A stretch of DNA of 64,000 nucleotides from contig CAWFIK010000001.1 in the NCBI GenBank assembly GCA_963815865.1, positions 14,493 to 78,492 on the forward strand, read 5' to 3'. Origin of the DNA: an uncultured Acidobacteriota bacterium (GTDB lineage Bacteria > Acidobacteriota > Thermoanaerobaculia > UBA5066 > Gp7-AA6). The position numbers and the translations under genes were made by a program. Below the pieces are notes generated by a model, which made no database searches, was not told where the DNA came from, and saw nothing but the letters and a program-made list of their open reading frames with translations. Shown one piece after another: positions 2,437 through 3,336 of the stretch (position 1 is the stretch's first letter; every line of letters starts with the position of its first letter).

Positions 2437-2694
2437 GAACTGACCGTTGTAGTTACGTTAATAAACCTGGCCATATGCTGGAAACCCTGAGAATCCCCTG
2501 CTACCGGCAACGGTGACAATGCACGGGGTGCAGGCAATCAGCAGGAAAGATCCGGAGCGATCCGGAAATCCTCAGAGACTTTACGCCAGGCCCGTCGATG
2601 ACGACGGGATGAGAAAGTCCGATCTGCATGGCGACATGCAGAGCCAGACGGAAACGATCTGGCCCCAGCGGGATCCGCTGGAGTAACACGGATA
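2437..2694 (+). mobile_element. ORF-less group I intron at the 23S L1917-equivalent site (3' boundary uncertain by about 3 nt)
   Basis: Foreign sequence follows ...CCGTAACTAT (U1917 equivalent). The internal guide GTAGTTACG (2449-2457) pairs with exon CGTAACTAT, with a terminal U.G. The adjacent GACCGTT (2442-2448) pairs with the 3' exon AACGGTC (P10). It shares core-like strings with the second intron (CCATATGC.GGAAAC, CCTCAGAGACTT.ACG). Confidence 0.75.
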
Positions 2695-2708
2695 AACGGT
2701 CCTAAGGT

Positions 2709-3336
2709 TAACTAACGCTAGCCTTGGTTAAACCGAACCATATGCGGGAAACTCCTCTTTACAGCCGTCTGGTACTCGTCAGCGAGTCGCTGGCAGTAAA
2801 AATCCAACGGACATGGGGACAATCCGCAGGGAAGGCCCGCTTTGCAGCGGGAACCCTCAGAGACTTGACGTTCGGGGACATCCGATGAAGCTCGATGCAC
2901 AATGGGTCACAGGTTTCGTAGACGGGGAGGGATGCTTTTTCGTGGGGATCAACGAGCATTCCGACATGAAGACCGGAGTCCAGGTACTTCCGGAATTCAC
3001 CGTCGTGCAACACGAACGCGACGTTCAGCTGCTTTTCGCCTTGAAAGAGTTCTTCGGTTGCGGAGTGGTTCGCACGAACCACGGCGACCGGATGGCTTTC
3101 CGGGTGCGAGGCAAGGAGCACCTGCTCCAGCGCGTCGTCCCATTTTTCGTAGAGCACCCGCTGAAATCAAAGAAACGTGTGGACTTCGAGAAGTTCCGCA
3201 GGGTTCTTCTGAAGATGGAAGCGGGCGACCACCTGACGGCAAACGGAGTGGAGGAAATCCGCAAGATTGCCAGTCAGATGAATCGAGGGAGTCCAAGGTA
3301 AAGTCCAGCCTGTTTGGAAACATTCGGGAACAACTG
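2709..3336 (+). mobile_element. Group I intron at the 23S L1931-equivalent site, carrying a homing endonuclease ORF
   Basis: Inserted between ...CCTAAGGT and AGCGAAATTCC. The 5' exon ends in U and the intron ends in G (3336). The guide GCCTTGG (2721-2727) pairs with exon CTAAGGT with a terminal U.G. CGCT (2716-2719) pairs with the 3' exon AGCG (P10). Confidence 0.85.
2885..3301 (+). CDS. LAGLIDADG homing endonuclease (single-motif, I-CreI-like size), intron-encoded
   Basis: ORF track 2813..3301. ATG at 2885 gives MKLDAQWVTGFVDGEGCFFVGI..., where TGFVDGEGCF is the LAGLIDADG motif. About 138 aa, lying entirely inside intron 2. Confidence 0.85.
   Translation: MKLDAQWVTGFVDGEGCFFVGINEHSDMKTGVQVLPEFTVVQHERDVQLLFALKEFFGCGVVRTNHGDRMAFRVRGKEHLLQRVVPFFVEHPLKSKKRVDFEKFRRVLLKMEAGDHLTANGVEEIRKIASQMNRGSPR

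Follow-up and report, generated by a model that had tools for sequence, protein, structure and literature searches.

How a complete 23S ribosomal RNA (rRNA) might be made from a gene that is interrupted twice within 14 nucleotides (nt), once by an intron that ends in adenosine, is the question raised by the rRNA operon at the start of a 64,000-nt stretch of contig CAWFIK010000001.1 from an uncultured Acidobacteriota bacterium. The whole of that stretch is referred to here as the window. Judged from its sequence, the single 23S gene of the window probably contains two related, self-splicing group I introns that lack the P2 helix, the second of which carries a homing endonuclease gene. A sequence-only reading of the window had placed two inserts 14 nt apart at the equivalents of sites L1917 and L1931, and the present analysis agrees with it base for base, with identical coordinates. 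That reading missed that the last base of intron 1 is A2694 (...CACGGAUA/AACGG, the slash marking the junction), such that intron 1 has no terminal guanosine (omegaG). The twin with its LAGLIDADG gene, as first stated, is a case of already described, textbook-type mobile introns and of little import; the terminal A and its correlates are the sole part likely to draw specialist follow-up.

Read directly, the order is GGCGGCCGTAACTAT up to position 2436, 258 nt, AACGGTCCTAAGGT (2695-2708), 628 nt, and AGCGAAATTCCTTGTCGGGTAAGTTCC from position 3337. The alignment to the Rfam large-subunit (LSU) rRNA model breaks off at 2424 (model position 1931) and restarts at 3337 (model position 1958), and the 26 model positions that are absent correspond exactly to GGCCGTAACTAT (2425-2436, 12 nt) plus the 14 nt of AACGGTCCTAAGGT. 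Given that 12 and 14 exon bases fill these positions, the 23S gene is interrupted by two inserts, of 258 and 628 nt. Exons joined in silico give a continuous match to the 23S rRNA of E. coli. In a 2906-nt annotated copy the junctions are at 1919 and 1933; these agree with U1917 and U1931 in the reference of 2904 nt, provided that the two extra bases lie upstream. The assignment to L1917 and L1931 follows from the helix 69 loop sequence, GUAACUAUAAC, and the 14-nt spacing agrees with it. We take the three U's of this loop to be the pseudouridine positions 1911, 1915 and 1917.

By sequence and fold, both inserts are group I introns. A covariance-model check, proposed with the sequence-only reading, finds a group I core in both (RF00028; 50.5 bits for intron 1 and 32 bits for intron 2). 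The match to intron 1, in a local search, has an E value of 1e-11 and spans the whole model length, with a gathering score of 50. Intron 1 has no open reading frame (ORF) and no P2, and it has an extended P5 together with P9, P9.1 and P9.2. The pairings that had been proposed for it, a P1 of nine base pairs (bp) with U.G at the splice site and a P10 of GACCGTT with AACGGTC, are all present on direct reading. In DNA letters this P1 joins GTAGTTACG (2449-2457) to CGTAACTAT over 9 bp, the last pair being U.G, and the U.G and the five adjacent pairs are unchanged in 30 of 30 relatives. The fold was mapped by hand onto an alignment of 30 short L1917 introns, with pairing partners slid by 1-3 columns as controls, and comprises P1, P3, P4, P5, P5a, P5b, P6, P6a, P7 (as a pseudoknot), P8, P9, P9.1, P9.2 and P10. 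Standard pairs occupy 92.8% of cells across the 30 relatives, compared with 32-38% in the slid controls, and 48 of the 85 pairs have changed on both sides in a compensatory manner. An unconstrained minimum-energy fold recovers P1, P3-P6a, P8 and P9-P9.2 (z = -5.9). The guanosine-binding pair, G2577:C2619, follows the bulged A2576 and is G:C in each of the 30 relatives, A-ending and G-ending alike.

For intron 2, the fold was scored with the ORF cut out, on an alignment of 14 relatives. Paired cells make up 95% of the total, against 28-49% in slid controls, and compensatory changes are found in 30 of 74 pairs. P1 is paired in 99% of cells and P10 in 93%. All 14 sequences share the terminal G (G3336), the U.G at the splice site and the P7 pair G2862:C3305, with minor variation in P10, and the base after P7 and omega-1 form A:U or G:C in each of them. 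The pairings quoted earlier for this intron (GCCTTGG with CTAAGGT, CGCT with AGCG) are present, as is the terminal G. In the relatives of both introns the pairs closest to the splice sites are invariant; further out in P1, and in P10, some pairs have changed on one side only and some cells are unpaired. Compensatory changes are absent from P1 and P10 of either intron because the exon side is fixed. Intron 2, like intron 1, lacks P2 and has an extended P5. Introns at L1917 and L1931 have been described as IB4 (PMC11019260), and the lack of P2 and the extended P5 and P9 of both introns agree with published descriptions (PMC1995217, PMC11019260), an agreement in architecture rather than in scores against subgroup models. 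Global alignment of intron 1 with ORF-less intron 2 gives 153 identical positions, no better than shuffled sequences (mean 146), and so lends no quantitative support to a paralogous origin; short core blocks, among them CCATATGC and CCTCAGAGACTT, are common to the two introns.

An error can be excluded for the terminal A of intron 1, given that it recurs in 10 of 11 contigs with near-identical endonucleases and in some 70 further metagenome introns. The 11 contigs are independent and encode endonucleases that are 96-99% identical; ten have the same twin layout with terminal A, and in the eleventh (L125) intron 1 is 93% identical and ends in G. A metagenome scan that targeted L1917 introns with terminal A (loci L133-L252) returned at least about 70 of them, both short and long. 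A scan of a genome collection (loci L001-L120) accepted A, C or G alike at the terminal base, and among the matches listed 61 of 62 L1917 introns end in G, such that the A form is a minority there, although its absolute number is large. A-ending and G-ending introns are close relatives of one another in three or more separate groups, which indicates that the terminal base is evolutionarily labile. No choice of boundaries was found in the sequence by which intron 1 ends in G and the helix 69 loop is canonical as well. Shifted splice sites that would supply a terminal G (5' after U1915 or A1916, 3' after G2691) were rejected, given that they place extra bases in the universally conserved helix 69 loop and lose the U.G of P1. 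A guanosine-binding pair switched to A:U to suit the terminal A was likewise rejected, as none of the 30 relatives departs from G:C.

Most likely, the 3' splice site of intron 1 would be fixed by two helices that bracket A2694, a 2-bp P9.0 upstream and a P10 of 7 bp from +1 onwards, and this clamp on the junction may compensate for the absent G. Among 106 distinct L1917 introns, the second base of J7/9 pairs with omega-1 in 95, with A:U, G:C, C:G and U:A all occurring, as compared with a mean of 62 and a maximum of 72 in shuffles. We propose tentatively, and with somewhat more doubt than confidence, that the A-ending L1917 introns are a large natural ribozyme lineage that ligates exons without a terminal G, represented by about 70 distinct environmental examples, in which the guanosine pocket is unchanged and the 3' site is set by an always-paired P9.0 and a P10 that runs from +1. 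To our knowledge, the only published case of an absent terminal G is one Coxiella 23S intron; Cbu.L1917 is said to be that intron and to end in A. The title of Raghavan et al. 2007 describes both Coxiella 23S introns as self-splicing, one of them without the canonical omegaG, and a terminal G is thus typical rather than absolute for group I introns. Possibly the neighboring L1931 intron or its protein assists the second step of intron 1. An L1931 partner accompanies 54 of 69 A-ending introns from the metagenomes and 24 of 61 in the almost wholly G-ending genome sample, in each case among the matches listed; the sequences are interrelated, and the higher share may reflect shared ancestry rather than a functional link. 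If the proposal is correct, the A-ending introns offer a ready natural series for studying the second step of group I splicing without omegaG, and a P9.0 that is always paired and a P10 that abuts the junction provide a concrete explanation, open to testing, for the choice of 3' splice site in its absence.

Table 1. Coordinates in the window of the 23S gene, its introns and their splicing elements, and the other RNA genes of the operon
Feature	Coordinates	Strand	Details
23S rRNA, full-length bacterial	422-4304	+	RF02541, 2778 bits
23S exon 1	422-2436	+	3' end ...GGCCGUAACUAU; U1917 equivalent in helix 69 loop
Intron 1, group I at L1917, 258 nt	2437-2694	+	RF00028; last base A
Intron 1 P10 guide GACCGUU	2442-2448	+	pairs with micro-exon bases 1-7, AACGGUC (2695-2701), from +1
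Intron 1 internal guide GUAGUUACG	2449-2457	+	9-bp P1 with CGUAACUAU (2428-2436); U.G at splice site
Intron 1 P7 5' strand, G-A(bulge)-GACU	2575-2580	+	pairs with 2616-2620 (AGUCC)
Intron 1 J7/9 bases A, U	2622-2623	+	P9.0 with U2693 and A2692, just 5' of terminal A2694
Micro-exon, 14 nt, AACGGUCCUAAGGU	2695-2708	+	E. coli 1918-1931; helix 69 3' half and linker towards helix 71
Intron 2, group I at L1931, 628 nt	2709-3336	+	RF00028; ORF in P8 loop; last base G
Intron 2 P10 guide CGCU	2716-2719	+	pairs with AGCG at 3337-3340
Intron 2 internal guide GCCUUGG	2721-2727	+	7-bp P1 with CUAAGGU (2702-2708); U2708.G2721 at splice site
Single-motif LAGLIDADG gene, 138 amino acids (aa)	2885-3301	+	Pfam and PDB matches; ATG 2885, TAA 3299-3301
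23S exon 3	3337-4304	+	5' start AGCGAAAUUCC; A1932 equivalent
tRNA-Ile	93-167		
tRNA-Ala	191-263		
5S rRNA	4453-4569		

In the scheme that we propose, each intron would fold into a ribozyme whose own internal guide binds the 5' exon, with P1 closed by U.G. Each would be cleaved by an exogenous guanosine held at the G:C pair of P7, and the exons would then be ligated with the help of P10. Both excisions would be required to rebuild helix 69 and its 3' flank. The micro-exon is divided seven and seven without overlap, such that bases 1-7 (AACGGUC) form P10 with intron 1 and bases 8-14 (CUAAGGU) form P1 with intron 2. Given this division, the introns make no competing demands on the micro-exon, and the two reactions can run independently and in either order. 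The sequence-only reading had described the two splicing events as coupled, a term that the anatomy does not support: both are needed, and nothing in the layout points to dependence of either on the other. Exon skipping has been reported for the Coxiella intron pair and is possible for the 23S transcript of the window as well; the P10 guide of intron 1 is not complementary to the exon 3' of intron 2.

Two further observations touch on splicing. The 3' tail of intron 1 contains the motif GUAACA at 2683-2688, and (G/C/U)UAACA is found 5-6 nt before the last base in nearly all L1917 introns; it is at least 90% conserved in the L1917 intron alignment and present in most of the L1917 introns of loci L001-L252. 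The GUAAC of the tail repeats the GUAAC of the 5' exon (2429-2433) and is the perfect complement of GUUAC in the internal guide (2452-2456), so that the tail of intron 1 might vie with the 5' exon in forming P1. A gene for a DEAD-box RNA helicase (Pfam DEAD and Helicase_C) lies some 28 kb away from the introns, on the minus strand at 31799-33148. For Coxiella, participation of a helicase in the splicing of group I introns has been proposed in the title of a paper; such helicases are common, and the location of this one near the introns is probably a coincidence.

The ORF of intron 2 had been called a LAGLIDADG gene from its TGFVDGEGCF motif, and database matches confirm the call. The protein matches Pfam LAGLIDADG_1 (PF00961) with an E value of 1.6e-23 and 83.9 bits, against a cut-off of 23.1, and aligns end to end with PDB entry 5gkk, a "putative homing endonuclease" (E 9.5e-53). 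It contains VTGFVDGEG, of which GFVDGEG is also found in 5gkk; the acidic residue of the LAGLIDADG motif is catalytic and binds metal. A longer reading is a 162-aa ORF from position 2813, and homologues and the PDB alignment start at its M25. There are 3966 homologues at E <= 1e-10, and most among the best matches listed are 138 aa long. The ratio of nonsynonymous to synonymous substitution rates (dN/dS) relative to relatives is 0.02-0.18, which indicates purifying selection and therefore a protein in use, and which fits endonuclease or maturase activity alike. The gene is placed in the P8 loop, with its ATG at the distal end of the P8 5' strand; the last seven codons overlap the P8 3' strand (3287-3294) and J8/7, and the TAA adjoins the P7 3' strand (3302-3306). 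Compensatory changes occur in P8 despite the overlap with coding sequence, so that those bases are doubly constrained. Overlap of the ORF with the ribozyme core has been reported before for L1917 and L1931 introns (PMC1995217).

The 138-aa protein would act as a homodimer. Most likely it would cut the intron-less L1931 site (CGGTCCTAAGGT/AGCGAAATTCC; CGGTCCTAAGGT/AGCGAAATTCCTTG) and so drive homing. With only 14 bp between the introns, intron 1 would in most cases be co-converted when a cut at L1931 is repaired. The protein may be a maturase in addition; the protein of the Thermotoga neapolitana 23S intron has a maturase-like activity.

A number of points weigh against the reading of two active introns or temper parts of it. 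The RF00028 match to intron 2 (32 bits, E 4e-6 in the local search) is under the gathering score of 50, which is explained by the 397-nt ORF insertion that splits P8; a natural ORF-less L1931 relative of 240 nt (L065) scores 50.9 bits, above the gathering score. In the window and the closest relatives, P9 of intron 2 (3309-3328) has two adjacent U.U mismatches under its GAAA loop, and P8 has an A.A mismatch (2880/3290); distant relatives have perfect P8 and P9 helices at those places. The 64-kb window contains one rrn operon. In model group I ribozymes, a change of the terminal G to A blocks exon ligation, so that intron 1 could splice slowly or need a helper. The P9.0 pair is kept in 53 of 53 A-ending and 42 of 53 G-ending introns, and contiguous P10 from +1 averages 5.7 bp in the former and 1.3 bp in the latter, both comparisons being counts that ignore kinship. 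Long and short partners are found in each of the four possible combinations, that of two ORF-sized introns included, and co-mobilization by one endonuclease is thus plausible and not required. Splicing in vivo with its order and accuracy, the handling of the terminal A, endonuclease activity and co-mobility are features that we infer from the sequence.

The lack of a terminal G, together with the presence of a single rrn copy in the window, would also suit inserts that derive from group I introns of which at least intron 1 no longer splices, with the result that the rrn copy is crippled or the insert is retained in mature 23S rRNA; there is a paper whose title reports an unspliced group I intron at L1931 in the 23S rRNA of Simkania. 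Loss of splicing in the window is nevertheless unlikely. An insert retained in the helix 69 loop, which forms bridge B2a, is very unlikely to be tolerated, and a crippled copy is at odds with the rest of the 23S gene, which is intact and full length at 2778 bits. Compensatory changes maintain the core helices, and P1, P10 and P9.0 are retained, A-ending relatives included. Lineages with exons that differ by 1-22% have kept the terminal A, and A and G have been exchanged at least three times, which is not the pattern expected of decay. The Coxiella intron that lacks omegaG and is called self-splicing in the title of Raghavan et al. 2007 argues in the same direction.

Fragmenting intervening sequences are, from the literature background, the commoner kind of insert in bacterial 23S genes, and inserts of this RNase III type would be excised without ligation, to leave a fragmented 23S rRNA and a free 14-nt piece. 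We regard this as very improbable here, given that both inserts match the group I model and have covarying group I cores, and that neither is a simple extended stem. Moreover, the known sites of such sequences are elsewhere, the one in Coxiella being in helix 45, and in bacteria of the candidate phyla radiation (CPR) short non-intron inserts occupy sites separate from those of group I introns (PMC11270868). A free 14-mer would not be expected to rebuild helix 69 stably. Least probable of all, even by comparison with fragmentation, is that the twin is an artefact of assembly or binning, such as a chimera of rRNA reads from different organisms. Although the rRNA operons of metagenome-derived genomes are well known for misassembly, the same layout recurs in JGI, ENA and NCBI samples on more than 10 independent contigs, L233 spans the whole 23S gene at 97-98% identity, and an identical endonuclease is on record from a contig of 654,662 bp.

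The two self-splicing introns of the preferred reading belong to a widely distributed type. Near-identical twins are present on more than 10 independent metagenome contigs, with a layout of 254-261 nt, 14 nt and 627-629 nt. Identities of intron 1 and intron 2 to those of the window are 98 and 98%, 93 and 95%, and 88 and 85% in the nearest relatives, and then 64-77 and 69-78%, and contigs with exons that are 95-99% identical bear the same intron pair. Given that the introns diverge in step and that near-identical exons bear the same pair, the twin has been inherited as a unit in the lineage of the window. Intron 2 is 78% identical to its counterpart in a Gemmatimonadota genome and the rRNA exons are 75% identical, which suggests horizontal spread between phyla at some point. 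A rule that twins never carry two endonuclease genes (none of 21 genome twins for which both lengths are known does) was dropped in view of six metagenome pairs with two long introns and of Synechococcus sp. C9.

Among the genome-scan matches listed are 62 bacterial L1917 introns; 24 of them are paired with an L1931 intron and 10 with a probable one at L1951. The hosts of the L1917 introns among these matches are Dormibacterota, Actinomycetota, Gemmatimonadota, Nitrospirota, Acidobacteriota, Proteobacteria and a Coxiella endosymbiont. CPR bacteria, too, often have introns at 1917 and 1931 (PMC11270868). The sequence-only reading had held group I introns in bacterial 23S genes to be rare, which is contradicted by the share of listed L1917 introns that are twinned and by the many phyla involved. 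Introns of this kind, the twin included, are far from rare in uncultured phyla of soil and sediment, and are found in Acidobacteriota, Gemmatimonadota, Nitrospirota, Actinomycetota, Dormibacterota and Gammaproteobacteria. Their commonness bears on rRNA-based annotation and on the design of primers and probes.

Some of the scan matches are of other kinds. In at least 10 genome loci an L1917 intron is followed by a second insert just after ...GTCGGGTAAG, which is the Coxiella-type arrangement of L1917 and L1951 with a 34-nt exon; these include L005, L006, L037, L064, L101, L104, L108 and L118 and come from Thermoleophilia, Dormibacterota, Nitrospinaceae, Peregrinibacteria and Proteobacteria. One match, L055 (E. 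coli ECGI0523 chromosome, 3976001-3984000, match at 7661-7675), is a 23S-like copy that reads ...GGCCGTAGCTAC/AACGGTCCTAAGGT/AGCGAAATACCTTGTGGTAAG... and has several changes in the helix 69-71 region, which does not otherwise vary; it could be a degraded copy or a sequencing error. The 15-mer AAACGGTCCTAAGGT is also present, by chance, in a conserved gene that encodes a protein and is unrelated to rRNA (context CAAAGATGGCTTAACAATCGAA/AACGG...). Such protein-coding matches account for about 45 of the 120 metagenome matches listed (L133, L138, L144 and about 40 others, from human gut and other sources) and for L004 (Veillonella).

Occupancy of L1917 and L1931 in the same gene had been presented as not known to be described for this lineage; elsewhere it is already on record, in Synechococcus sp. 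C9 (PMC1995217) and in the plastid of a diatom (PMC11019260). Synechococcus sp. C9 (Haugen et al. 2007, PMC1995217) is like the window in having group I introns at L1917 and L1931 around the same 14-nt exon, single-motif LAGLIDADG genes, no P2, a complex P5 and an ORF that extends into the ribozyme core. It differs in that both introns (743 and 666 nt) contain an endonuclease gene and in that a third intron is present at L2593 (PMC1995217), whereas in the window intron 1 is ORF-less, 258 nt long and A-ending, there is no L2593 intron, and the host belongs to a different phylum. In the plastid rrl gene of Navicula vanseea and in LSU genes of green-algal organelles, IB4 introns with LAGLIDADG genes are also found at 1917 and 1931; these cases differ from the window in being organellar and in having an endonuclease in both introns (PMC11019260). 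Thermotoga provides a bacterial L1931 intron with a single-motif LAGLIDADG gene (699-700 nt, 162 aa), but its introns are single, with no L1917 partner within a species and with L1917 only in T. subterranea (PMC1995217), and the protein of the window has 138 aa.

Coxiella (Raghavan et al. 2007; Hicks et al. 2011) resembles the window, going by the title of the 2007 paper and by accounts given in other papers, in that two group I introns surround a very short 23S exon in the same region, one intron lacking the canonical terminal G and one carrying a LAGLIDADG gene. Unlike the window, with L1931 and 14 nt, Coxiella has L1951 as the partner site and a 34-nt exon, and its introns have been assigned to subgroups IB2 and IA3 in the literature. 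Close counterparts are twins from uncultured bacteria (among them L079 from Gemmatimonadota, L100 from Longimicrobiales, L020 from Nitrospirales, and L233), which share the sites and the intron families and have an intron 2 that is 69-98% identical with an endonuclease of equal length, but whose intron 1, in the genome-collection examples, mostly ends in G. No description of these uncultured twins was found in the literature, and a literature search found no paper on 23S introns in Acidobacteriota. The claim that such a pair was not described for this lineage may therefore hold literally for Acidobacteriota, and what it adds is merely a wider distribution.

A few features of the surroundings may be added. 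The GC content is 67%, and the closest 23S gene among the loci compared is that of L077 (Acidobacteriota), at 78-84% identity. At 42826-44415 on the plus strand lies a gene for a VWA-domain protein that matches TIGR03436, "acidobact_VWFA", with 154.7 bits against a cut-off of 81; the TIGR03436 family is expanded in Acidobacteria. GC content, closest 23S gene and the TIGR03436 match together indicate that the host is probably an acidobacterium. In the spacer between the 23S and 5S genes, positions 4355-4448 form a long, near-perfect hairpin of repeated CAGUUUUC / GGUUCUCAGUUUU units (-41 kcal/mol, z = -5.3), perhaps a stem for processing, perhaps a small repeat element.

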